From Escherichia phage HY01, in the sequence record NC_027349.1: 64,000 bases of DNA, one strand, 5' to 3'. This document shows positions 1-27,209 of the stretch, in pieces (the first letter of the stretch is position 1; each line of letters starts with the position of its first letter). The translations under genes were made by a program, and so were the position numbers. Under the pieces are notes generated by a model. It saw only the letters and a list, made by a program, of their open reading frames with translations. It had not been told where the DNA came from and searched no databases.

Positions 1-1545
1 CCTACCGCAAAAATTATCGCTAAAGCGAAAGAAGTAGGCGAATATCCAGCATTAGGTTCTAACTGGACCGCGGAAATTTCTTCGTCTTCCTCTGGTTTAG
101 CTGCAGTAATAACTCTTGGAAAAATTATTACTGATTCTGGTATTTTATTAGCTGAAATTGAAAATGCTGAAGCTGCTATGACAGCTGTTGACTTTCAAGC
201 AAATCTCGAAAAATATGGAATTCCAGGAGTAGTAGCTCTTTATCCAGGCGAGTTGGGCGATAAAATCGAAATTGAAATCGTATCTAAAGCTGACTACGCA
301 AAAGGTGCTTCTGCATTACTTCCAATTTATCCAGGTGGCGGAACACGCGCATCTACTGCCAAAGCAGTGTTTGGATATGGACCACAAACTGATTCACAAT
401 ACGCTATTATAGTTCGTCGCAACGATGCTATTGTTCAAAGCGTTGTTCTTTCAACGAAGCGAGGTGAAAAAGATATTTACGATAGTAACATCTATATTGA
501 CGACTTTTTCGCAAAAGGTGGTTCAGAATATATTTTCGCAACTGCACAAAACTGGCCAGAAGGCTTCTCTGGAATTTTAACTCTGTCTGGTGGATTATCA
601 TCAAATGCTGAAGTAACAGCAGGAGATTTGATGGAAGCTTGGGACTTCTTTGCTGACCGTGAATCTGTTGATGTTCAGTTGTTTATTGCGGGTTCTTGTG
701 CCGGTGAATCTTTAGAAACAGCATCTACTGTCCAAAAACACGTCGTTTCAATTGGGGATGCTCGCCAAGATTGCTTAGTACTGTGCTCACCGCCGCGCGA
801 AACTGTAGTTGGAATTCCTGTAACTCGTGCTGTTGATAACTTAGTCAATTGGAGAACCGCAGCAGGTTCATACACTGATAATAACTTTAATATCAGTTCA
901 ACCTACGCAGCAATTGATGGTAACTACAAGTATCAGTATGACAAATATAATGATGTAAATCGTTGGGTTCCATTAGCAGCTGATATTGCTGGTTTATGCG
1001 CGAGAACCGATAACGTTTCTCAGACTTGGATGTCTCCAGCTGGTTATAATCGCGGCCAGATTTTGAACGTTATTAAACTTGCTATTGAAACTCGCCAGGC
1101 GCAGCGCGACCGTTTATATCAAGAAGCTATCAACCCAGTAACTGGTACAGGTGGTGATGGTTACGTACTGTATGGTGATAAAACAGCTACTTCTGTTCCT
1201 TCTCCATTTGATCGTATTAACGTTCGTCGTCTGTTTAATATGTTGAAAACGAATATCGGACGTAGTTCAAAATATCGTTTATTTGAATTAAACAACGCGT
1301 TTACTCGTTCATCGTTCCGCACAGAAACATCCCAGTACTTACAGGGAATTAAAGCTCTCGGTGGAATTTATGAATATCGTGTAGTTTGCGATACAACAAA
1401 TAACACTCCGTCAGTAATTGATAGAAATGAGTTTGTTGCAACATTCTACATCCAACCGGCGCGCAGTATAAATTATATTACTTTGAATTTCGTCGCAACT
1501 GCTACTGGTGCAGATTTCGATGAGTTAACTGGTCTTGCAGGTTAA
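1..1545 (+). CDS. 18: Tail sheath protein gp18, 5'-truncated at window edge (frame open from nt 1; about 145 codons missing upstream)
   Basis: Open frame from position 1 through stop at 1545; protein matches T4 gp18 C-terminal 2/3 as I recall it; position upstream of 19. Confidence 0.9.
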   Translation, partial: PTAKIIAKAKEVGEYPALGSNWTAEISSSSSGLAAVITLGKIITDSGILLAEIENAEAAMTAVDFQANLEKYGIPGVVALYPGELGDKIEIEIVSKADYAKGASALLPIYPGGGTRASTAKAVFGYGPQTDSQYAIIVRRNDAIVQSVVLSTKRGEKDIYDSNIYIDDFFAKGGSEYIFATAQNWPEGFSGILTLSGGLSSNAEVTAGDLMEAWDFFADRESVDVQLFIAGSCAGESLETASTVQKHVVSIGDARQDCLVLCSPPRETVVGIPVTRAVDNLVNWRTAAGSYTDNNFNISSTYAAIDGNYKYQYDKYNDVNRWVPLAADIAGLCARTDNVSQTWMSPAGYNRGQILNVIKLAIETRQAQRDRLYQEAINPVTGTGGDGYVLYGDKTATSVPSPFDRINVRRLFNMLKTNIGRSSKYRLFELNNAFTRSSFRTETSQYLQGIKALGGIYEYRVVCDTTNNTPSVIDRNEFVATFYIQPARSINYITLNFVATATGADFDELTGLAG

Positions 1546-1580
1546 TACGGTGCATTCTAAAGGCCTGTTTCGGCAGGCCA

Positions 1581-1588
1581 TATAAATA
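1581..1588 (+). promoter_or_regulatory. T4-type late promoter TATAAATA upstream of gene 19 (second copy at 1640-1647)
   Basis: Exact TATAAATA octamer after hairpin GGCCTG-TTTCGG-CAGGCC. Confidence 0.5.
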
Positions 1589-1661
1589 CACTATATCCTT
1601 AATTCTTTAATTCTATATGCCCTAGGTTAAACATAGGGATATAAATACTACAGAGGCTAAT

Positions 1662-2153
1662 ATGTTTGTAGATGATGTAACACGAGCGTTTGAATCCGGT
1701 GATTTTGCTCGACCTAACTTATTCCAAGTAGAAATTTCTTATCTTGGACAAAATTTTACGTTTCAATGTAAAGCCACTGCTTTACCAGCTGGTATTGTAG
1801 AAAAAATTCCAGTCGGATTCATGAACCGTAAAATTAACGTAGCAGGCGATCGTACATTCGATGACTGGACTGTTACAGTAATGAACGATGAGGCACATGA
1901 TGCTCGCCAGAAGTTTGTTGATTGGCAAAGCATTGCTGCTGGGCAAGGAAACGAAATTACTGGTGGAAAACCAGCAGAGTATAAAAAGAGCGCTATTGTA
2001 CGCCAATATGCTCGTGACGCTAAAACTGTAACAAAAGAAGTCGAAATTAAAGGCCTGTGGCCTACTAACGTGGGTGAACTTCAATTAGATTGGGATTCAA
2101 ACAATGAAATCCAAACCTTTGAAGTAACTCTTGCTCTCGATTATTGGGAATAA
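1662..2153 (+). CDS. 19: Tail tube protein gp19 (163 aa)
   Basis: Length and order identical to T4 gp19; SD GAGG before ATG 1662. Confidence 0.9.
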   Translation: MFVDDVTRAFESGDFARPNLFQVEISYLGQNFTFQCKATALPAGIVEKIPVGFMNRKINVAGDRTFDDWTVTVMNDEAHDARQKFVDWQSIAAGQGNEITGGKPAEYKKSAIVRQYARDAKTVTKEVEIKGLWPTNVGELQLDWDSNNEIQTFEVTLALDYWE

Positions 2154-2185
2154 AATGAATGGGGAGAAATCCCCATCCTGCTTAA

Positions 2186-3810
<1,625 letters not shown>

Positions 3811-3811
<1 letters not shown>

Positions 3812-4059
3812 TGGAAGGTTTAATTGAAGCTATTAAATCAAACGACCTCGTAGCCGCTCGTAAATTATTTGCTGAAGCCATGGCTGCAAGAACGATTGAT
3901 TTAATTAAAGAAGAAAAAATCGCTATCGCTCGTAATTTCTTAATTGAAGGTGAAGAACCTGAAGACGAGGATGAAGATGATGACGAAGATGGTGATGATA
4001 AAGACGACAAAAAAGACAAAGACTCTGACGAAGATGACGAAGACGAGGATGATGAATAA
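3811..4059 (+). CDS. 67: Prohead core protein gp67 with poly-acidic C-terminus
   Basis: TAATG overlap with gene 20 stop; acidic D/E tail; size and position as T4 gp67. Confidence 0.8.
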
Positions 4060-4484
4060 TGCTTCTGATCCCTGAAACTCATGAATTAGTTCTCGAGAAT
4101 GTCGAAGCACTTATTCCTGAAGCACAGGGTCGCTTTGACGAATTGTCTTCTGCTTTAAATAAAGACGATATAAATACAATTGTCGAGAATATGCTTGATG
4201 ATGAAACTGATTTAGCAGTTGCATTAGCTTCTATTAATGAAAATATGCCGTTAAATGAATTCATCGTTAAACATGTTTCTGCCCGTGGTGAAATTACTCG
4301 CACTAAAGATCGCAAAACCCGCGAACGAAATGCATTTCAAACCACCGGGCTGTCTAAAGCAAAACGTAGACAAATTGCTCGCAAAGCTACCAAAACGAAG
4401 ATTGCCAATCCAGCAGGTCAATCTCGTGCTCAGCGTAAGCGTAAAAAAGCTCTTAAACGCCGTAAAGCATTAGGATTAAGCTAA
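4059..4484 (+). CDS. 68: Prohead core protein gp68 (141 aa), basic C-terminus
   Basis: Start overlaps gp67 stop (TAATG); size/position as T4 gp68. Confidence 0.75.
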
Positions 4485-5122
4485 TGAATGAACCCCAATT
4501 ACTAATTGAAACTTGGGGTCAACCTGGCGAAATTATTGATGGTGTGCCAATGCTTGAATCCCACGATGGAAAAGACTTAGGTTTAAAACCGGGTTTATAC
4601 ATCGAAGGAATATTCATGCAAGCAGAAGTCGTCAATAGAAATAAACGTCTTTATCCAAAACGCATATTAGAAAAAGCGGTAAAAGACTATATTAATGAGC
4701 AAGTTTTAACTAAACAAGCTCTCGGAGAATTAAATCATCCTCCACGCGCTAATGTTGACCCGATGCAAGCCGCTATCATTATAGAAGATATGTGGTGGAA
4801 AGGAAATGACGTATACGGACGAGCTCGTGTTATTGAAGGTGACCATGGTCCTGGAGATAAATTAGCAGCTAATATTCGTGCCGGATGGATTCCAGGAGTT
4901 TCTTCTCGTGGATTAGGTTCATTGACTGACACAAATAAAGGTTATCGTATCGTAAACGAAGGATTCAAATTAACTGTAGGTGTTGATGCAGTATGGGGTC
5001 CAAGTGCTCCAGATGCATGGGTAACTCCTAAGGAAATTACCGAATCACAGACGGCGGAAGCCGATACAAGTGCCGATGACGCCTATATGGCTCTCGCAGA
5101 GGCCATGAAAAAAGCGTTATAA
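4484..5122 (+). CDS. 21: Prohead core protease gp21 (212 aa)
   Basis: Size, order and sequence as T4 gp21. Confidence 0.9.
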   Translation: MNEPQLLIETWGQPGEIIDGVPMLESHDGKDLGLKPGLYIEGIFMQAEVVNRNKRLYPKRILEKAVKDYINEQVLTKQALGELNHPPRANVDPMQAAIIIEDMWWKGNDVYGRARVIEGDHGPGDKLAANIRAGWIPGVSSRGLGSLTDTNKGYRIVNEGFKLTVGVDAVWGPSAPDAWVTPKEITESQTAEADTSADDAYMALAEAMKKAL

Positions 5123-5152
5123 ATATTATTATCTAAACAACAGGACTACAAA

Positions 5153-5962
5153 ATGCTTAAAGAACAACTGATTGCCGAAGCGCAGAAAATTGATGCTTCC
5201 GTTGCTCTTGATAGTATTTTCGAATCAGTTAATATTTCTCCGGAAGCAAAAGAAACTTTCGGCACTGTATTCGAAGCTACCGTCAAGCAGCACGCCGTTA
5301 AATTAGCTGAATCTCATATCGCTAAAATTGCTGAAAAAGCAGAAGAAGAAGTAGAAAAAAATAAAGAAGAAGCCGAAGAAAAAGCTGAGAAGAAAATCGC
5401 TGAGCAAGCTTCTAAATTCATCGACCATCTTGCGAAAGAATGGCTCGCTGAAAATAAATTAGCAGTTGATAAAGGCATCAAAGCCGAACTGTTTGAATCC
5501 ATGCTTGGTGGATTAAAAGAGCTCTTTGTTGAACACAACGTTGTTGTTCCAGAAGAATCAGTTGATGTTGTAGCTGAAATGGAAGAAGAGCTGCAAGAAC
5601 ATAAAGAAGAATCAGCTCGTCTGTTCGAAGAACTCAATAAGCGTGACGCATATATCAATTATGTGCAGCGTGAAGTGGCATTGAGCGAAAGTACTAAAGA
5701 TCTGACTGAGTCTCAAAAAGAAAAAGTCTCTGCTCTGGTCGAAGGTATGGATTATTCAGATGAATTCTCAAGTAAATTGAGTGCCATCGTAGAAATGGTG
5801 AAGAAGTCTAATAAAGATGAAAGCACTATTACTGAGGGTATAAATACTCCTGATACTGAAGCAGCCGGACTGAATTTCGTCACTGAAGCTGTAGAAGATA
5901 AAGCTGCACCTGGTGCAGAAGATATTGTAAGTGTATATGCGAAAGTCGCATCTCGTTTCTAA
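5153..5962 (+). CDS. 22: Prohead scaffold protein gp22 (269 aa), charged coiled-coil rich
   Basis: E/K-rich helical protein between 21 and 23; size as T4 gp22. Confidence 0.9.
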   Translation: MLKEQLIAEAQKIDASVALDSIFESVNISPEAKETFGTVFEATVKQHAVKLAESHIAKIAEKAEEEVEKNKEEAEEKAEKKIAEQASKFIDHLAKEWLAENKLAVDKGIKAELFESMLGGLKELFVEHNVVVPEESVDVVAEMEEELQEHKEESARLFEELNKRDAYINYVQREVALSESTKDLTESQKEKVSALVEGMDYSDEFSSKLSAIVEMVKKSNKDESTITEGINTPDTEAAGLNFVTEAVEDKAAPGAEDIVSVYAKVASRF

Positions 5963-5980
5963 TTTTAAAGGTTAACACAA

Positions 5981-7546
5981 ATGACTATCAAAACTAAAGC
6001 TGAACTTTTGAACAAATGGAAGCCATTACTGGAAGGTGAAGGTTTACCGGAAATTGCTAATAGCAAACAAGCGATTATCGCTAAAATCTTTGAAAACCAG
6101 GAAAAAGATTTCCAGACAGCTCCGGAATATAAAGACGAAAAAATTGCTCAGGCATTTGGTTCTTTCTTAACAGAAGCTGAAATCGGTGGTGACCACGGTT
6201 ACAATGCTACTAACATCGCTGCAGGTCAGACTTCTGGCGCAGTAACTCAGATTGGCCCGGCTGTTATGGGTATGGTACGTCGTGCTATTCCTAACCTGAT
6301 TGCTTTCGATATTTGCGGTGTTCAACCGATGAGCAGCCCAACCGGTCAGGTATTCGCACTCCGCGCGGTATATGGTAAAGATCCGATCGCTTCCGATGCT
6401 AAAGAAGCATTCCACCCAATGTATGGTCCAGACGCAATGTTCTCTGGTCAGGGTGCTGCTAAGAAATTCCCAGCTCTGGCTGCTAGCACACAAACCGTTG
6501 TAGGTGATATCTATACTCACTTCTTCCAGGAAACTGGTACTGTGTATCTGCAAGCTTCCGCTGTAGTAACAATCGATGCTAGTGCTACCGATGCAGCTAA
6601 ATTAGATGCTGAAATTAAGAAACAAATGGAAGCTGGTGTACTGGTAGAAATCGCTGAAGGTATGGCTACTTCTATCGCTGAACTTCAGGAAGGCTTCAAT
6701 GGTTCTACCGACAACCCGTGGAACGAAATGGGCTTCCGTATCGATAAACAAGTTATTGAAGCTAAATCTCGTCAGCTGAAAGCTGCTTACTCTATTGAAT
6801 TAGCACAAGACCTCCGCGCTGTTCACGGTATGGATGCTGATGCTGAACTGTCTGGTATTCTGGCTACCGAAATCATGCTGGAAATCAACCGCGAAGTTGT
6901 TGATTGGATTAACTACTCAGCTCAGGTTGGTAAATCTGGTATGACCCTGACTCCGGGTTCTAAAGCTGGTGTATTTGACTTCCAGGATCCGATTGATATT
7001 CGTGGTGCTCGCTGGGCAGGTGAATCCTTTAAAGCTCTGTTGTTCCAGATTGACAAAGAAGCAGTTGAAATTGCTCGTCAGACCGGTCGCGGCGAAGGTA
7101 ACTTCATTATCGCTTCCCGTAACGTAGTTAACGTTCTGGCTTCAGTTGATACTGGCATTTCTTATGCTGCACAGGGTCTGGCTACCGGCTTTAACACTGA
7201 TACTACCAAGTCAGTATTTGCTGGTGTTCTGGGTGGTAAATACCGTGTATATATCGACCAGTATGCTAAACAGGATTATTTCACTGTAGGTTATAAAGGT
7301 CCGAACGAAATGGATGCTGGTATTTACTACGCTCCATATGTAGCTCTGACTCCGCTGCGTGGTTCCGATCCGAAGAACTTCCAACCAGTAATGGGATTCA
7401 AAACTCGTTACGGTATCGGTATCAACCCATTTGCAGAATCCGCTGCTCAGGCTCCGGCTTCTCGCATCCAGAGCGGTATGCCTTCTATTCTGAATAGCCT
7501 TGGTAAAAACGCTTACTTCCGCCGTGTATATGTTAAAGGTATCTAA
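5981..7546 (+). CDS. 23: Major capsid protein gp23 (521 aa)
   Basis: Sequence matches T4 gp23 (MTIKTKAELLNKWKPL...); biased highly-expressed codon usage. Confidence 0.95.
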   Translation: MTIKTKAELLNKWKPLLEGEGLPEIANSKQAIIAKIFENQEKDFQTAPEYKDEKIAQAFGSFLTEAEIGGDHGYNATNIAAGQTSGAVTQIGPAVMGMVRRAIPNLIAFDICGVQPMSSPTGQVFALRAVYGKDPIASDAKEAFHPMYGPDAMFSGQGAAKKFPALAASTQTVVGDIYTHFFQETGTVYLQASAVVTIDASATDAAKLDAEIKKQMEAGVLVEIAEGMATSIAELQEGFNGSTDNPWNEMGFRIDKQVIEAKSRQLKAAYSIELAQDLRAVHGMDADAELSGILATEIMLEINREVVDWINYSAQVGKSGMTLTPGSKAGVFDFQDPIDIRGARWAGESFKALLFQIDKEAVEIARQTGRGEGNFIIASRNVVNVLASVDTGISYAAQGLATGFNTDTTKSVFAGVLGGKYRVYIDQYAKQDYFTVGYKGPNEMDAGIYYAPYVALTPLRGSDPKNFQPVMGFKTRYGIGINPFAESAAQAPASRIQSGMPSILNSLGKNAYFRRVYVKGI

Positions 7547-7561
7547 TCTTTGACGATTTAA

Positions 7562-7590
7562 GGGACCTTCGGGTCCCTTTAGTTGTTTTT
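7562..7590 (+). terminator. Intrinsic terminator after gene 23
   Basis: GGGACC-TTCG-GGTCCC hairpin followed by T-rich run. Confidence 0.7.
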
Positions 7591-7594
7591 ATGG

Positions 7595-7602
7595 TATAAA
7601 TA
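7595..7602 (+). promoter_or_regulatory. Late promoter TATAAATA for gene 24
   Basis: Exact octamer about 28 nt upstream of ATG 7630. Confidence 0.55.
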
Positions 7603-7629
7603 AATCATATAAACCAAAAGGAAAGCGCA

Positions 7630-8913
7630 ATGGCTAAAATCAACGAACTTCTGCGCGAATCAACCACAACGAATAGCAACTCAATCGGTCGCCCAAATCT
7701 CGTTGCTTTGACTCGCGCTACCACTAAATTAATATATTCTGACATTGTAGCAACACAAAGAACTAATCAACCTGTTGCTGCTTTTTATGGTATCAAATAC
7801 CTTAACCCAGATAACGAATTTACGTTTAAAACTGGTGCTACTTACGCTGGCGAAGCTGGATATGTAGACCGAGAACAAATCACAGAATTAACAGAAGAGT
7901 CTAAATTAACTCTCAATAAAGGCGATTTATTCAAATATAATAATATCGTTTATAAAGTATTAGAAGATACACCATTTGCTACCATTGAAGAAAGCGATTT
8001 AGAATTAGCTCTTCAGATTGCAATTGTTCTTTTAAAGGTTCGTCTATTTTCTGACGCAGCGTCAACGAGCAAATTTGAAAGCTCTGATAGCGAAATTGCT
8101 GATGCTAGATTCCAGATTAATAAATGGCAAACCGCAGTTAAATCTCGTAAACTTAAAACTGGCATTACGGTTGAATTAGCACAAGATTTAGAAGCAAATG
8201 GATTCGATGCTCCTAATTTCTTGGAAGATTTGCTTGCAACTGAAATGGCAGATGAAATCAATAAAGATATTCTGCAGTCTTTGATTACAGTATCAAAACG
8301 TTATAAAGTTACAGGAATTACTGATACTGGATTCATTGATTTGAGTTATGCATCTGCACCTGAAGCTGGTCGTTCATTATACCGAATGGTGTGTGAAATG
8401 GTTTCGCATATCCAAAAAGAATCAACTTATACAGCAACGTTCTGTGTTGCTTCAGCTCGTGCTGCTGCGATTCTTGCTGCATCAGGTTGGTTAAAACATA
8501 AACCAGAAGATGACAAATATCTTTCACAAAATGCCTACGGGTTCTTAGCTAATGGTTTACCGCTTTATTGCGATACTAACAGCCCATTAGATTATGTAAT
8601 CGTTGGTGTAGTAGAAAATATCGGTGAAAAAGAAATTGTTGGATCAATTTTCTATGCTCCGTATACAGAAGGTCTTGACTTAGATGACCCTGAACATGTA
8701 GGTGCATTTAAAGTTGTAGTTGATCCAGAAAGTTTGCAGCCATCTATCGGTTTATTGGTTAGATATGCTTTATCTGCAAATCCTTACACTGTAGCAAAAG
8801 ATGAAAAAGAAGCAAGAATAATTGATGGTGGAGACATGGATAAAATGGCGGGTCGTTCAGATTTGTCTGTTTTATTAGGTGTTAAACTGCCAAAAATTAT
8901 CGTTGATGAATAA
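7630..8913 (+). CDS. 24: Capsid vertex protein gp24 (427 aa)
   Basis: gp23 paralog, size and position as T4 gp24; late promoter upstream. Confidence 0.9.
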   Translation: MAKINELLRESTTTNSNSIGRPNLVALTRATTKLIYSDIVATQRTNQPVAAFYGIKYLNPDNEFTFKTGATYAGEAGYVDREQITELTEESKLTLNKGDLFKYNNIVYKVLEDTPFATIEESDLELALQIAIVLLKVRLFSDAASTSKFESSDSEIADARFQINKWQTAVKSRKLKTGITVELAQDLEANGFDAPNFLEDLLATEMADEINKDILQSLITVSKRYKVTGITDTGFIDLSYASAPEAGRSLYRMVCEMVSHIQKESTYTATFCVASARAAAILAASGWLKHKPEDDKYLSQNAYGFLANGLPLYCDTNSPLDYVIVGVVENIGEKEIVGSIFYAPYTEGLDLDDPEHVGAFKVVVDPESLQPSIGLLVRYALSANPYTVAKDEKEARIIDGGDMDKMAGRSDLSVLLGVKLPKIIVDE

Positions 8914-22434: not shown

Positions 22435-22438
22435 CAAT

Positions 22439-22468
22439 GGGGACCGAAAGGTCCCCATATTTTTATTT
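22439..22468. terminator. Terminator after gene 54 (bidirectional)
   Basis: GGGGACC-GAAA-GGTCCCC hairpin plus T-run. Confidence 0.65.
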
Positions 22469-22753
22469 ACGGAATGAAATAAAAGCAGCAACTGAAGCAA
22501 CTAAACTGTCTTCAATATAAACTTCAATTTTTACCGGAGCTTCTGACTCAAATTTACCTGTTACTACACCTTGGAAAATGCTTTCAGTCTGTTCTGGCTT
22601 TGAAAAATTTTCAGAAGGAAAAATTCCGAACTTTTTATCTGTTCCAAAAATTTTGATAAATTCATCATAAACTGCTTCATTAAAAGCGTTATCAGCAGGA
22701 ATAACGCCTTCAACTACAAGTTCTTGACCTAAAAAGCGTAAAGAAGATTTCAT
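22463..22753 (-). CDS. Hypothetical protein, 96 aa
   Basis: ORF with GAGGA SD, driven by the repeated early-promoter cassette at 22761-22814. Confidence 0.5.
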   Translation of the reverse strand: MKSSLRFLGQELVVEGVIPADNAFNEAVYDEFIKIFGTDKKFGIFPSENFSKPEQTESIFQGVVTGKFESEAPVKIEVYIEDSLVASVAAFISFRK

Positions 22754-22760
22754 TTTGTGT

Positions 22761-22814
22761 TCCTCATGTTATGTCAGTAAGATTATTATAACACAACACG
22801 AGGGACTTGTAAAC
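22761..22814 (-). promoter_or_regulatory. Early-promoter cassette copy A (-35 GTTTACA, 17-nt spacer, -10 TATAAT, leader with GAGGA SD)
   Basis: Minus-strand GTTTACAAGTCCCTCGTGTTGTGTTATAATAATCTTACTGACATAACATGAGGA. Confidence 0.55.
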
Positions 22815-24871
22815 TACATCTTGAACTTTTTAGACATTCCGTTGATGTTAACCAAAGAAGCCAAGATTTGAGAAACTTCGTTTTCCTCTTCTTTTGATTC
22901 TTCTACAAGGAATTGATTAAACCCAGCCATTGGACGAACTTCACCAGTTTCCATTAGATGATCGCCATCATATACCGATTCTTCTAATTGTTCAGAAGGA
23001 GGAACGATTGTGCCTTCAATTAGATACTTGTTATAAGCAGTTTCTTTCATCATGTACGTGCTTACTTTATTAATCTTCAACAAAATTCCACGCGGTAGAA
23101 TAACTTCAGCTTCTGATGGAAATCCCGATAAATGACCTGGAACGATAACTTTGATTCGCTCAGCCCCTTTAATTACCATACCTACGCTAGTTTCAGCATC
23201 TTCATTCGCATAAGCAGAATGACTGCCCATATGCATTAAATCTTCAGCATCAACAGAACCTTCTCCTTCACCAGAAAATACTGCGCCGGAATCATCTAGA
23301 GCCATATAGTTTTTACCATGCTCACCGAAGATATTTGGTTTAAGCGATGTTGATACGAAGTTCTTGAAATAGAACATTTTATTTTCAATATTATGGCGTA
23401 AAGTTTTAAAAGTAACTTCTTGTCCACGATAAAGCGTAGTTCCTGGAGGAAGAACTGAACCTTTGGCAAAGGCAGAATCCAGCGTCTCGATGTGTTTAAT
23501 AGCTCGTTCCATATATTCTTCACGGGTAGAATCTGGTTTACCCAAGAGGAACGAGTTCATTTCAACATATGAATCTGCACAATAATCTTCAATTACATCA
23601 GACTCAGCCTGAGTCAGTCCTTTTGGAGTTACTTCGGTGCTTGCGTATTCATATGCCTGAGCAGCAGATTCATTAATCAATTTATAAATGCCATTCATGA
23701 CAAATTGAATAATAGCTACCTTTTCGTCTGGCGTGGCTTTAGAACCTTTAACTAAATCATTGATAATTTTCTTAATAACATCAAAGCTATTAGAAATATT
23801 AATGTCAGCGAGATCGCTCAAAATTTTATCGGTTTTATAATCAAAGAATTCTTTATTCTTTAAATATTCTTGAGAACCTTGATGTGTTATATCGCTCTGC
23901 AGTCTGATAGACGGATCACGTAAACGTGCATGGGCCAATGCAATATGATTTCGGAAGCTTTCTAGTTCATAATCGTTAGATTTAAAACGAGAAGCACTTC
24001 TCATACCACCGATAGCTCCTTTACCGAAGTTTGAACCAATCTGAATAACGCCAGAGTTCATTGGTCCTTCTGCTTTATATACCGGAACTTTAGATTCAAA
24101 CTCTTGATATTTCTTAGCGGCAAAGCTATCACCCTGAAGCGAAGCATCGACAGTAGAATATTGAGCTTGCGCTGCTAATCGACGACTAATTTTAGTTTTC
24201 TGAATAACAGCTTGATCCGTGCGCTTATCATTTTCTAAAGCAATAGAAGCGGCAACAGCAACAGCTTTAGGAACAGCATTACCTGTTTTAACATCTACAT
24301 AAACATCACCAACCTTTGATTCAACTTTTGTGAATAACTCAGTTGAAATAGGAGGTACACCTGGAATGTCTTCTAAATTAGCATTTTTACGGTAAACCAT
24401 AATATATGCGTACTTTTTATCGTAATCCCAGATTTCCTTTAAAAGAACATATCGACCTGCTCCTTTAGTACGTACTAAACGGTCGGCAATAACTTGCATT
24501 TGACGAGCTGCACCATTTGTTTTACTCTTTAGTACGCGGAATAAGCATGCGTCAATTTTGTATTGTTTCATTGTCTGAAGAGCAGTATCAAAAACCGCAT
24601 TAATGACACCAATTGGATTTCCACCCAAGTTTTTAAGTTTAACTAATGATAGTTTCTCATTAACACCTATCATTACGATATGCATCATTTTATCGCCTGG
24701 CTTAACGTTTTTATTTGTATCACCGCCAGAGGTGTATGTACAAAATCTAAATCCAGGAAGCACGCTTTCTTCACCGGCTTGAATAGCAAAAATTTGAGGT
24801 ATTTTATGCTTAGGATTTAAGTTAACAACCGGCGCCGAAGCGCCGTCAAATAATTCTGTAATAAGTTCCAT
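22814..24871 (-). CDS. Alt-like ADP-ribosyltransferase paralog (685 aa)
   Basis: N-terminal about 220 aa and C-terminal ART domain homologous to the adjacent alt; R-S-E motifs (YRGQ, FVSTSL, EAEVILPRG); central region diverged. Confidence 0.8.
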   Translation of the reverse strand: MELITELFDGASAPVVNLNPKHKIPQIFAIQAGEESVLPGFRFCTYTSGGDTNKNVKPGDKMMHIVMIGVNEKLSLVKLKNLGGNPIGVINAVFDTALQTMKQYKIDACLFRVLKSKTNGAARQMQVIADRLVRTKGAGRYVLLKEIWDYDKKYAYIMVYRKNANLEDIPGVPPISTELFTKVESKVGDVYVDVKTGNAVPKAVAVAASIALENDKRTDQAVIQKTKISRRLAAQAQYSTVDASLQGDSFAAKKYQEFESKVPVYKAEGPMNSGVIQIGSNFGKGAIGGMRSASRFKSNDYELESFRNHIALAHARLRDPSIRLQSDITHQGSQEYLKNKEFFDYKTDKILSDLADINISNSFDVIKKIINDLVKGSKATPDEKVAIIQFVMNGIYKLINESAAQAYEYASTEVTPKGLTQAESDVIEDYCADSYVEMNSFLLGKPDSTREEYMERAIKHIETLDSAFAKGSVLPPGTTLYRGQEVTFKTLRHNIENKMFYFKNFVSTSLKPNIFGEHGKNYMALDDSGAVFSGEGEGSVDAEDLMHMGSHSAYANEDAETSVGMVIKGAERIKVIVPGHLSGFPSEAEVILPRGILLKINKVSTYMMKETAYNKYLIEGTIVPPSEQLEESVYDGDHLMETGEVRPMAGFNQFLVEESKEEENEVSQILASLVNINGMSKKFKM

Positions 24872-24874
24872 GAT

Positions 24875-26971
24875 TTATCCTTGAACGAACTTGTAAGGCA
24901 TGTTTGTAATATCTATGCAAGACGCAATAATTCCGAGAGATGATTCTGCTTTCTGTTTAACATTTGATGAAACAAATGATGCAAAGTCAACTCTGTCTTC
25001 TATTTCAATATCACCTGTCATTGCAACTACTTCGCCGGTTTCCATTAAACGGTCACCGTCATAAATTACTGATTCGGTGAGTTCTTCCGTAGTCATAACT
25101 TCAGCTTGAATGAGTTTTGTATTATTAGATGTTGTTCCGTCATTATTAGAAGCATCAGTTATTTTATTAACTTTGACCATCAATCCGCGTGGTAGAATAA
25201 CTTCAGCTTCTGTTGCTATTCCGAGACTTCCTGGATATACAACATTAACTTTATGAGCTCCATCAATTGCCCATCCTATTTGAACTTTAACGTATTCAGG
25301 ATTTTCTTTATACGCTCTTATTTCGTTTGGATTAATAGTTATTCCTTCTTCATTTTTATCAACTGTCAATTCATTACGAGCTTCTGGTTCTAAAAGACCA
25401 ATACCAGCATGTGTAATTCCAAAACGTCCAAAAATGATAGGAGTTAAAGAAGTAGATACAAAATTTCTGAAATAGAATACTTTATTTTTAACTAGTGCTT
25501 CGTATATAGGAGCAGTCATACTTTGAGCACGATAAACTGTAATGCCTTCTGGTATACGGTCGCCATTTTCAAAAGCTGAATCTAAGTTATTTATAGCAGA
25601 TTCAATTTCTTTTTCACTCATTACATCATATCGTTCTGGATTGTAGCGTCCTAAAAGAAGATTATTGATGTCAGTATATCCTGAACCGCAATACTCTCTA
25701 ATGCCACGCTTTTGTGATGGAGTATATTTAGAACCATCACGGGCAATAGTAATATCAATCATTGGACCTGCACCAATTCCAGAAAAACTATAAATCATTC
25801 TTTTGAGGAATTTAGTTTTTGCTGCGTTCCAGGAATTTTTAGTTATTTCTTCCCAGACTTCATCTGGCTGTCCTTTACGGGTTTTATTATGTTTATCAAG
25901 CCAATTATCTTTATATTCTTCAAAGAGTTGATTAACAGCTGCTGCGTATTTCTCTAAACATTTTATTGAAGTAGTTGGTTCATTTTTAATCGCATTAAGA
26001 ATTACATCTTTAATTTTTTCAGAAACTTCATTAACCTCACTTTTTGAAAAGAATTTATAATCATAGTGAAGTTCATCTGCAGTTCCTTCGGCAATAATTT
26101 TTGCTGTCTTAGTTTTAGAAGCTAATGAATTAATTCCAAGTTTCATTTCTTCTGCTTCAGGAATTAAAGGAGCTGTAGCATGTTTATTAAAATTGGCTGC
26201 GGTAGATTCATACTTCTGGAATAATTCGCTTTCAAATCTAGAAGATTCTAATGACTGGCTTTGTGCAATTGCTCTACGGGAAATTTTAACTTTAACGATT
26301 ACAGCTTGGTCAGAACGTTTATCATTTTCTTGTGCAATAGATGCTGCAATTGCCTCATTTTTAGTTACTTGAGCTCCGGTATCTTTATTGATATAAACAT
26401 CACCGACCTTCGATTCAACTTTAGTAAAGAGCTCGGTACTAATTTCCGGAACTCCTGGAATGTCTTCTAGTGATACATTTTTGCGATGTATAAGAATATA
26501 TGCATACTTTTTATCATAATCCCAGAGTTCCTTAAGAAGGACGTATCTGCCACCTGAACGACTACGGATAAGTCTATCAGCAATAACTTGAATTTGTCGA
26601 GCTTGACCAGCAGTTTTAGACTTAAGAATACGAAGCATGCAGGCATCAATTTTATACTGACGCATCGTCTGCATTGCAACAGTAAAAACTGAATTGATGT
26701 AATTAATTGGACTTGGACCGAGACCTTTTAATTTAGCAATTGAACCTTTAGCAGTTAGTGTAAAAGGAACAATGTGCATCATTTTATCGCCCATCTTTAA
26801 ATCGCGATTAGTATCACCTCCAGATGTATAGGTACATAAACGAAAGCCTGGTTGTTCAATTGCGTCATCAACATGAACTGAAAAAATTTGTGGTATTTTC
26901 TTCTTTGGATTTAAGTTTGTAATCGGAAGAGTAGTATCTTCGTCAAATAATTCTGTAATAAGTTCCATCAT
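24875..26971 (-). CDS. alt: Alt ADP-ribosyltransferase (698 aa; start may be second ATG at 26968)
   Basis: R-S-E ART motifs (YRAQ, FVSTSL, EAEVILPRG); late promoter TATAAATA and SD upstream; matches T4 Alt as recalled. Confidence 0.85.
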   Translation of the reverse strand: MMELITELFDEDTTLPITNLNPKKKIPQIFSVHVDDAIEQPGFRLCTYTSGGDTNRDLKMGDKMMHIVPFTLTAKGSIAKLKGLGPSPINYINSVFTVAMQTMRQYKIDACMLRILKSKTAGQARQIQVIADRLIRSRSGGRYVLLKELWDYDKKYAYILIHRKNVSLEDIPGVPEISTELFTKVESKVGDVYINKDTGAQVTKNEAIAASIAQENDKRSDQAVIVKVKISRRAIAQSQSLESSRFESELFQKYESTAANFNKHATAPLIPEAEEMKLGINSLASKTKTAKIIAEGTADELHYDYKFFSKSEVNEVSEKIKDVILNAIKNEPTTSIKCLEKYAAAVNQLFEEYKDNWLDKHNKTRKGQPDEVWEEITKNSWNAAKTKFLKRMIYSFSGIGAGPMIDITIARDGSKYTPSQKRGIREYCGSGYTDINNLLLGRYNPERYDVMSEKEIESAINNLDSAFENGDRIPEGITVYRAQSMTAPIYEALVKNKVFYFRNFVSTSLTPIIFGRFGITHAGIGLLEPEARNELTVDKNEEGITINPNEIRAYKENPEYVKVQIGWAIDGAHKVNVVYPGSLGIATEAEVILPRGLMVKVNKITDASNNDGTTSNNTKLIQAEVMTTEELTESVIYDGDRLMETGEVVAMTGDIEIEDRVDFASFVSSNVKQKAESSLGIIASCIDITNMPYKFVQG

Positions 26972-26991: not shown

Positions 26992-26999
26992 TATTTATA
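26992..26999 (-). promoter_or_regulatory. Late promoter TATAAATA upstream of alt
   Basis: Minus-strand TATAAATA between terminator hairpin and alt SD. Confidence 0.45.
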
Positions 27000-27000
27000 A

Positions 27001-27023
27001 AATTAAAGGCCCGAAGGCCTTTA
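27001..27023 (-). terminator. Terminator hairpin downstream of ligase operon ORF
   Basis: AAAGGCC-TTCG-GGCCTTT followed by AATTTTAT on minus strand. Confidence 0.5.
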
Positions 27024-27209
27024 ATAATCTAGTGGTAAGAGAGTACGGTATATTTCAAACTTTGGCCCTTTTTCATAGGCATCAAATGTTTCTGTAAATT
27101 TATTATAAGCATACGCATCTACAAATTCGAGAATGACTTGCGATACCGAAGTAGAAACATCTCCACCTTCTTTTTGAGCTATAACAATTGTTTCTAAGTA
27201 AGCTTTCAT
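27021..27209 (-). CDS. Hypothetical protein, 62 aa
   Basis: ORF overlapping ligase stop (ATGA), followed by terminator hairpin. Confidence 0.4.
   Translation of the reverse strand: MKAYLETIVIAQKEGGDVSTSVSQVILEFVDAYAYNKFTETFDAYEKGPKFEIYRTLLPLDY

Follow-up and report, generated by a model that had tools for sequence, protein, structure and literature searches.

A tandem pair of alt genes in Escherichia phage HY01: N-terminal domains that follow lineage and ADP-ribosyltransferase cassettes that follow type

Introduction

Why does a T4-like phage carry, side by side, two genes for Alt-type mono-ADP-ribosyltransferases that agree closely at the beginning of the protein and have almost nothing in common in the middle? 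The question is raised by a stretch of 64,000 nucleotides from Escherichia phage HY01 (NC_027349.1), referred to here as the window and numbered from its first letter, in which the genes alt and alt2 lie next to each other on the minus strand. Alt is a classic injected phage enzyme, and nearly all work on it has been done in T4. An earlier note on this DNA had interpreted the pair as a duplication followed by the replacement or diversification of a putative target-recognition module in the centre of the protein.

The T4 protein, an NAD+-arginine ADP-ribosyltransferase, is a component of the head core, present in about 40 copies, from which the protease gp21 trims an N-terminal propeptide and a C-terminal segment before it is injected with the DNA (PMC9026906). 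It ADP-ribosylates Arg265 of the RNA polymerase alpha subunit together with other proteins (PMC2988021). Second copies have been described before. The T4 annotation attributes alt.-1 (NP_049810) and alt.-2 (NP_049809) to an old duplication affecting the first part of alt, and Nolan et al. (2006) reported alt paralogs in several T4-like phages including 44RR (PMC1524935). In Bas37 (KarlGJung) the same pair is present in a region 97.5% identical to the one studied here, with bas37_0032 annotated as “Alt2”, and a 2026 paper described two Alt-like paralogs of 43% identity in 6phi13/SHFML-11 and inferred functional divergence after duplication (PMC13600099). The idea of functional divergence is not new, as these four sources precede us, and those on Bas37, 6phi13/SHFML-11 and 44RR come without domain-wise histories, fusion alleles or Alt2 biochemistry. 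The pair is a known one in a sequenced phage, already described and ordinary among T4-like phages, and its classification is unchanged by our results. What is added is the distinction between an N-terminal domain that goes with lineage and a cassette that goes with type, a set of fusion genes, the reading of the T4 remnant as a deletion, and a predicted helical architecture common to the paralogs.

Two paralogs with an uneven likeness

The two adjacent minus-strand open reading frames were confirmed at 24875–26971 (698 aa) and 22814–24871 (685 aa). The upstream protein is likelier to have 697 residues: the second ATG, at 26968, which opens the protein with MELITE, is most likely the start because the PEC04 annotation and the start of T4 Alt agree on it. 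The minus-strand alt region, 4.9 kb long, has 100% DNA identity to that of Escherichia phage PEC04 (KR233165, Tequatrovirus hy01), after which we name the alleles, and is found at 95–99% identity in 372 other phage records.

Overall the two proteins are 41% identical (BLASTP E = 9e-158), and this figure is an average over very different parts. The N-terminal domains match at 161 of 237 positions (68%) over residues 1–238, the ADP-ribosyltransferase (ART) domains at 36–38%, the C-terminal tails at 42–47%, and the middles at 11–19%, which is the level of chance. The shared N-terminal region that the earlier note had described is therefore real, as is the lack of sequence similarity in the centre, although the dissimilar middle is about 180 residues long and not the 200–250 first given.

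Both copies have the C-terminal ART domain with R-S-E motifs that had been claimed for them. PF03496 (ADPrib_exo_Tox) matches alt with E = 1.6e-37 and alt2 with E = 3.2e-20, and an alignment of 25 family members shows the catalytic Arg, S-T-S and E-x-E without variation in either paralog. A check of the second copy for inactivating changes found none, its Glu and STS being intact. The catalytic domain is structurally similar to solved R-S-E (C3/VIP2-like) ARTs, and specificity for arginine is predicted because the motif is R-S-ExE. Sequence identity to the C3/VIP2/iota-toxin/Vis class is only 14–25%, and unlike that class the Alt pair has N-terminal and helical regions that are phage-specific. 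A sequence search of the PDB gave no match for alt2 and just weak matches of N-terminal ART helices for alt. The N-terminal domain is assigned to PF26846 (Tevenvirinae_ADPRT) by precomputed matches on alt-type and alt2-type relatives together with N-domain identity. Invariant residues recur in the tail, namely Y636, D637, G638, D639, E643, G645, E646, K693 and F694 in alt and Y634, D635, G636, D637, E641, G643, E644, K682 and F683 in alt2.

A further variable segment lies inside the ART domain. The insert between S-T-S and E-x-E, residues ~515–560 (alt ~25290–25425; alt2 ~23190–23330), cannot be aligned from one cassette type to another and is modelled with low confidence. Since segments preceding E-x-E contribute to substrate choice in related toxins, the loop is, alongside the helical middle, another candidate determinant of specificity.

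Separate histories within one gene

To which relatives each part of the gene is closest depends on the part. Between PEC04 and the Dhakavirus phage IME281, N-domain residues ~28–175 group by genome: paralogs within a genome are 67–68% identical, orthologs across the genera 47%, and cross-paralog pairs across the genera 42–43%. From residue ~236 onward the grouping follows paralog type. The middles of the alt orthologs are 66% identical and those of the alt2 orthologs 44%, the ART domains 94% and 59%, and the tails 54% and 64%; paralogs of one genome have 15–19% identity in the middle, 38–39% in the ART domain and 42–43% in the tail. In a neighbour-joining tree of 13 N-domains, PEC04 alt, T4 alt and PEC04 alt2 group with a bootstrap of 100, and so do the two copies of Aeromonas phage L9-6; for the same number of sequences the type-wise grouping of the middle and ART domain comes from identity matrices, bootstraps having been obtained for the N-domain tree. 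The middle, ART domain and C-terminal tail act as one cassette that clusters by type across genera, with at least three old types. The N-domain and the remainder of the gene have had different histories, and the likeness of the N-domains between paralogs is more than a leftover of duplication.

Recent gene conversion between the paralogous N-domains is rejected by synonymous divergence (dS), which is 1.39 between the PEC04 N-domains (ratio of nonsynonymous to synonymous divergence, dN/dS, 0.20) and 1.75 between those of IME281. Any homogenisation must therefore be old, with the similarity kept by selection. We infer that the N-domain is constrained by a partner specific to the lineage, the head core being the most plausible one, and that all paralogs of a phage are under this constraint.

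The tandem pair itself appears ancient, from before the Tequatrovirus/Dhakavirus split. If instead alt had been duplicated separately in each lineage, with foreign cassettes taken up afterwards, no ancient pair with N-domains later homogenised or co-evolved would be needed. The bootstrap of 100 for grouping by lineage fits such a course, import of a cassette between genera does occur (the alt ART domain at 94% in PEC04 and IME281), and the clustering of SP18 alta with 04086_a of Dhakavirus suggests transfer of whole genes. Yet in both Tequatrovirus and Dhakavirus type 1 is upstream and type 2 downstream, between alt.1 and alt.-3; the type-2 cassette, at 45–67%, is about as similar as the neighbouring genes (58–68%), which fits vertical descent; and a residual signal of orthology survives in the N-domain (47% against 42–43%). 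We consider independent duplication rather unlikely and retain the ancient pair.

Exchange of cassettes between phages

The same division of the gene is seen between alleles of alt. PEC04 and T4 have the same locus, late promoter, MELITE start and R-S-ExE ART domain, and the genes around alt are 90–100% identical. The N-domains differ at one position (237/238 aa identical, dS 0.15) and the tails are 93% identical (dS 0.24), while the middles are 32% (dS 1.31) and the ART domains 65–66% identical (dS 1.18), so that with dS above 1 the middle and ART domain of PEC04 alt represent an allele anciently diverged from that of T4 Alt (gpAlt, NP_049811). By its sequence pattern this difference is an allelic replacement of the cassette, apparently by recombination in the conserved flanks. 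Between genera the pattern is reversed: the alt ART domains of PEC04 and IME281 have 94% amino acid identity (dS 0.45) and the neighbouring genes just 58–68%, a discrepancy that indicates a fairly recent inter-genus transfer of this part. More cassette alleles occur among the database matches (P0016/P0018, P0013–15 and P0017).

The sole functional hint that cassette differences matter comes from a recent screen, which reports that T4 Alt counters the Mokosh type I defence and that Bas37_0033, a PEC04-type Alt, does not (10.1101/2025.11.20.689424).

The helical middles

Is the middle of one paralog a foreign module? The sequence evidence, taken by itself, would allow it. In searches of 50,697 phage records with tblastn, the alt middle matched 790 records, at one place each and never in alt2, and the alt2 middle matched 444 records, again at one place each and never in alt. 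The 444 comprise 400 records at 90% identity or more, T2 and T6 included, and 44 of Dhakavirus type at about 46%, all in alt2-type genes. Profile comparison of the two middles with hhalign gave P = 0.045 and a probability of just 1.2% (references: ART domains 1e-48, N-domains 5e-100, negative controls 0.26–0.28). Together with identity at chance level, and with the genuine cassette replacement seen between the T4 and PEC04 alleles of alt, these results favour a true domain replacement.

Against it stands the predicted architecture. In AlphaFold models of alt and alt2 (mean predicted local distance difference test score, pLDDT, 76 and 75) both middles are all-helical, and from the N-domain to the first ART strand their helices form a near one-to-one series, similar in number, order and length. 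Weak as it is, the hhalign match runs collinearly through 133 columns. On SP18 alta, which belongs to the third type, the alt2 model can be superposed over 657 columns with template modelling (TM) scores of 0.72/0.79, though the middles are 13% identical. The alt model is collinear with the same protein over 706 columns at TM 0.42/0.45, scores limited by variable domain orientation, as even a 98%-identical fragment reaches only 0.34/0.49. No other kind of protein in the phage records contained a match to the alt2-type middle. With this 182-aa segment as query, large protein collections yielded one 112-aa fragment (word-indexed) and zero matches, self-like ones included (50%-representative), which are weak nulls given that hundreds of alt2 proteins exist. 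Judged by the models, a single ancestral helical domain that diverged to an extreme degree is a somewhat likelier origin of the two middles than a foreign module, and replacement from elsewhere seems to us fairly improbable. What remains of the original proposal of a duplication with a swapped centre is the tandem pair of ART paralogs, with intact catalytic motifs, centres without detectable sequence similarity and one late promoter in front; the similar predicted helical architecture speaks against foreign replacement, and the difference is not confined to the centre, as the whole cassette differs.

Fusion genes and the loss of cassettes

Several alt2-type proteins carry an N-domain that is partly or wholly of alt type. 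ECML-134, SCS4 and PST, and likewise five metagenome contigs (four distinct fusion proteins), have as their only alt gene one that joins the alt N-domain to alt2, the evidence for SCS4 being a single match at identical coordinates. Painting of informative sites showed clean single switches at six crossover points, around codons 51–54, 100–102, 109–110, 148–152, 183–187 and 221–224, and at these points the parental sequences in PEC04 are identical over 2–11 nt. Wherever context exists the fusion is the sole alt gene after alt.1, with alt.-3 directly next to it where the record reaches that far. This context covers ECML-134, Yersinia phage PST and, with both flanks, the long P0003 and P0005 contigs; the P0004 and P0007 contigs end just past the gene. 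From their sequences the fusions are unequal crossovers between the N-domains of the paralogs, in which the alt cassette would have been deleted and that of alt2 kept.

Assembly chimeras are an unlikely source of these genes, as three of them are in complete genomes of isolated phages, identity of 2–11 nt is too short for k-mer mis-joins, and P0003 and P0005 span both flanks.

T4 has lost the other cassette, by an internal deletion and not by recombination of N-domains. Its remnant, annotated as alt.-1 and alt.-2, matches PEC04 alt2 at 95.8% DNA identity in its first ~376 nt and contains a 1-nt frameshift, and a 1.69-kb internal deletion joins codon ~116 to the last alt2 codons with a 9-nt overlap at the junction. 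As orthologs, the two small genes correspond to the first ~116 codons of alt2 and to a few at its end; the gene is dead in T4 and full-length (685 aa) here, and the deletion junction is common to 91 GenBank records. As judged from these alignments, the T4 state is a recent loss of alt2 and not a partial duplication, and the direction given in the T4 annotation appears to be reversed.

Conservation of alt2 among phages

Could alt2 simply be a superfluous copy that is being lost, as happened in T4, with no role apart from that of alt and a middle that has drifted neutrally? The frameshifted and deleted remnant in T4, with its junction in 91 records, is what such a course would leave, and alt itself is non-essential in T4 (PMC9026906). 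However, full-length alt2 is at least 95% identical in ~395 GenBank phage records, and T2 and T6 are among its carriers. Its catalytic residues are invariant, and comparison of alt2 between PEC04 and IME281 gives a dN/dS of 0.10 in the ART domain and 0.31 in the middle. Dhakavirus has likewise retained the type-2 cassette, and ECML-134 and PST lost the alt1 cassette and kept that of alt2. We regard redundancy as very improbable, and the wide conservation, invariant catalytic residues and low dN/dS also reject alt2 as a pseudogene. Both alt and alt2 are intact and evolve under purifying selection, and their layout is one for co-transcription.

Tandem copies also occur at this position in other Straboviridae. 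Between gene 30 and gene 54, and with the same domain plan, two or three copies are found in SP18, L9-6, ZZ1, Phi1/RB49, IME281 and 04086, and the paralogs are of different cassette types, some of them split or truncated. Dhakavirus IME281 has two copies and 04086 three; Gaprivervirus SP18 has alta and altb; Biquartavirus L9-6 has a tandem pair; the second copy is split in Zedzedvirus ZZ1; and Krischvirus Phi1 has an extra short ART gene.

The three tandem genes of 04086 (1484–8035 of the extracted locus) are of types 3, 1 and 2. The third copy is N-terminally truncated as annotated, contains an ambiguous base and is preceded by a gap of ~740 nt, which could reflect a sequencing problem or a decaying copy. 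Proteins of the third type (SP18 alta, 3995–5869, and 04086_a, 1484–3379, of the extracted loci) are without the YDGDxLMETGE…KF tail and end in a short C-terminus of another kind; should packaging or processing depend on the tail, the handling of these proteins may differ.

A possible mechanism

Taken together, we think it probable on balance that the locus is the alt locus of Tequatrovirus, organised as a late unit of promoter, alt, alt2, alt.-3 and terminator that encodes two mono-ADP-ribosyltransferases of the Alt family and is subject to exchange of cassettes. By analogy with T4 Alt, Alt2 would follow the same route: after late synthesis, both proteins would enter the prohead core, be cleaved near either end and reach the host cell by injection together with the DNA. 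The recognition motif of the gp21 prohead protease is L/I-x-E. Predicted sites of this kind are present in both proteins, as MELITE|L, L(T/E)E|S and LME|T, with conserved L-x-E sites at 632 and 643 in alt and at 631 and 641 in alt2, and the N-terminal site fits because MELITE is of the L/I-x-E type.

Each protein would then consist of four parts. The N-terminal hexapeptide MELITE, fitting a gp21 site, would be followed by the alpha/beta N-domain of ~230 residues, lineage-specific and suited to the head core for incorporation and ejection. A helical region of ~180 residues and the ART domain would form the effector cassette. The disordered tail, with its invariant YDGDxLME-TGE and KF, is probably a C-terminal propeptide in alt, as its motifs suggest, and gp21 would remove it from both proteins. 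The two cassettes might ADP-ribosylate different host proteins, whether RNA polymerase alpha, other targets or defence systems. Cassettes would be exchanged between phages through recombination in the conserved flanks, and recombination between the N-domains of the paralogs would repeatedly delete one of them.

Conserved flanks with variable cassettes between them are indeed present at the alt locus. Injected, gp21-trimmed phage proteins that combine a conserved delivery part with a variable effector for takeover or anti-defence resemble Alt in this respect (PMC9026906, PMC12373910); the likeness is an analogy only, as in Alt the conserved part is a 230-aa domain plus a tail, not a 10-aa signal, and there is no immunity gene. 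In the manner of polymorphic toxins a cognate immunity gene would be expected, and none is evident at the locus, the downstream alt.-3 being conserved irrespective of cassette type. Our tentative proposal, to which we would give slightly less than an even chance, is that the alt locus is a polymorphic injected-effector system, in which a lineage-specific head-incorporation domain and a cleavable tail carry helical and ART cassettes that can be swapped even across genera, and that Alt2 is a second injected enzyme with a target of its own, overlooked as T4 has deleted it.

Several points weigh against the mechanism outlined here. The searchable literature contains no publication with experimental data on the packaging, processing, injection, activity or targets of Alt2, and direct evidence for any of these, or for distinct targets, is found neither there nor here. 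T4 and the ~91 records with its junction thrive without alt2, and ECML-134 and PST thrive without the alt1 cassette; because such phages do well, neither cassette is essential. The N-domain dS in PEC04 leaves no room for recent gene conversion, and clustering of N-domains by lineage could also arise from independent duplications with import of cassettes.

For the study of Alt the consequences are practical. T4, the model for this work, carries a deleted second copy, and if Alt2 indeed follows the route of Alt, most of its relatives, T2 and T6 included, inject two different ADP-ribosyltransferases. Even the “same” alt gene exists as anciently diverged cassette alleles. The map of variable and lineage-specific parts, together with phages that naturally have a single cassette (ECML-134, PST and T4), provides material for the mapping of targets.

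The locus and its signals

Gene order is as in T4, with 29, 48 and 54 on the plus strand and alt.-3, alt2, alt, alt.1 and gene 30 (ligase) on the minus strand, and the synteny 30/alt.1/alt/alt2/alt.-3/54 is common to T4, Bas37 and IME281. The pair lies between gene 30/alt.1 and alt.-3/gene 54 with a late promoter in front, as is characteristic of an Alt-family locus. The features are collected in Table 1.

Table 1. Features of the alt locus in the window, and of related genes in other phages (positions in the window unless an extracted locus is named)
Feature	Position	Strand	Description
alt.1	27021–27209	−	62 aa, between ligase gene and alt; Pfam “Phage_blade” PF24647, E = 1.9e-29
Terminator hairpin	27005–27022	−	G+C-rich, AAAGGCCTTCGGGCCTTT then T-run, after alt.1/gene 30; read from sequence
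Late promoter of alt–alt2	26992–26999	−	T4-type, TATAAATA, exact match; 23 nt upstream of MELITE start codon
alt (alt1), PEC04-type allele	24875–26968	−	697 aa; open reading frame, PF03496; named Alt in PEC04 and Bas37
alt N-terminal domain, residues 1–238	26255–26968	−	alpha/beta, PF26846 (Tevenvirinae_ADPRT); pLDDT 70–88
alt helical middle, residues 239–415	25724–26254	−	predicted all-helical
alt ART domain, residues 416–628	25085–25723	−	R480, S505-T-S507, E587-A-E589; PF03496
alt C-terminal tail, residues 629–697	24875–25084	−	YDGDxLMETGE and PxKF motifs; low pLDDT
Shine–Dalgarno sequence of alt2	24878–24882	−	AAGGA, within last alt codons; from sequence
alt2	22814–24871	−	685 aa; open reading frame, PF03496; “Alt2” in Bas37
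alt2 N-terminal domain, residues 1–238	24158–24871	−	includes MELITE
alt2 helical middle, residues 239–420	23612–24157	−	all-helical; pLDDT 76–93
alt2 ART domain, residues 421–629	22985–23611	−	R482, S507-T-S509, E587-A-E589
alt2 C-terminal tail, residues 630–685	22814–22984	−	predicted disordered, pLDDT <50; YDGDHLMETGE, KF
Promoter before alt.-3	22785–22813	−	sigma-70/T4-early-type; TTTACA, 17 nt, TG-TATAAT; 11/12 matches
alt.-3	22463–22753	−	last gene of unit; 96 aa, DUF5498, PF17602, E = 1.4e-64
Intrinsic terminator	22437–22458		bidirectional, between alt.-3 and convergent gene 54
Fusion gene, ECML-134	2501–4561 of extracted locus
Fusion gene, Yersinia phage PST	2501–4561 of extracted locus
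T4 remnant alt.-1/alt.-2	5066–5451 of extracted locus (NC_000866)

The alt.1 stop codon leads directly into the terminator hairpin, which is followed by the late promoter of alt. This single TATAAATA precedes the pair, and the earlier note was right that an obvious late promoter stands only before the upstream copy. A second TATAAATA at 25588–25595, inside alt, is probably incidental as a late promoter of alt2, since it encodes Ala-Ile-Asn and is not conserved (present in Bas37, absent from T4 and IME281). The gap between the alt stop codon and the alt2 ATG is 3 nt, and the junction is identical in T4.

The coordinates given in the earlier note, from 22463, also cover alt.-3, which was not mentioned there. 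Its protein is 100% identical to T4 Alt.-3, and the gene is kept whichever alt cassettes occur, the PEC04 and T4 copies being identical despite their different cassettes. Mutants in which T4 Alt.-3 is extended at its C-terminus evade the defence system CmdTAC because they block degradation of CmdA, and the wild-type protein is without an assigned function (PMC11618068). The promoter in front of alt.-3 suggests that this gene may be expressed early in addition to late read-through; in its T4 counterpart the −10 element is TATAGT.

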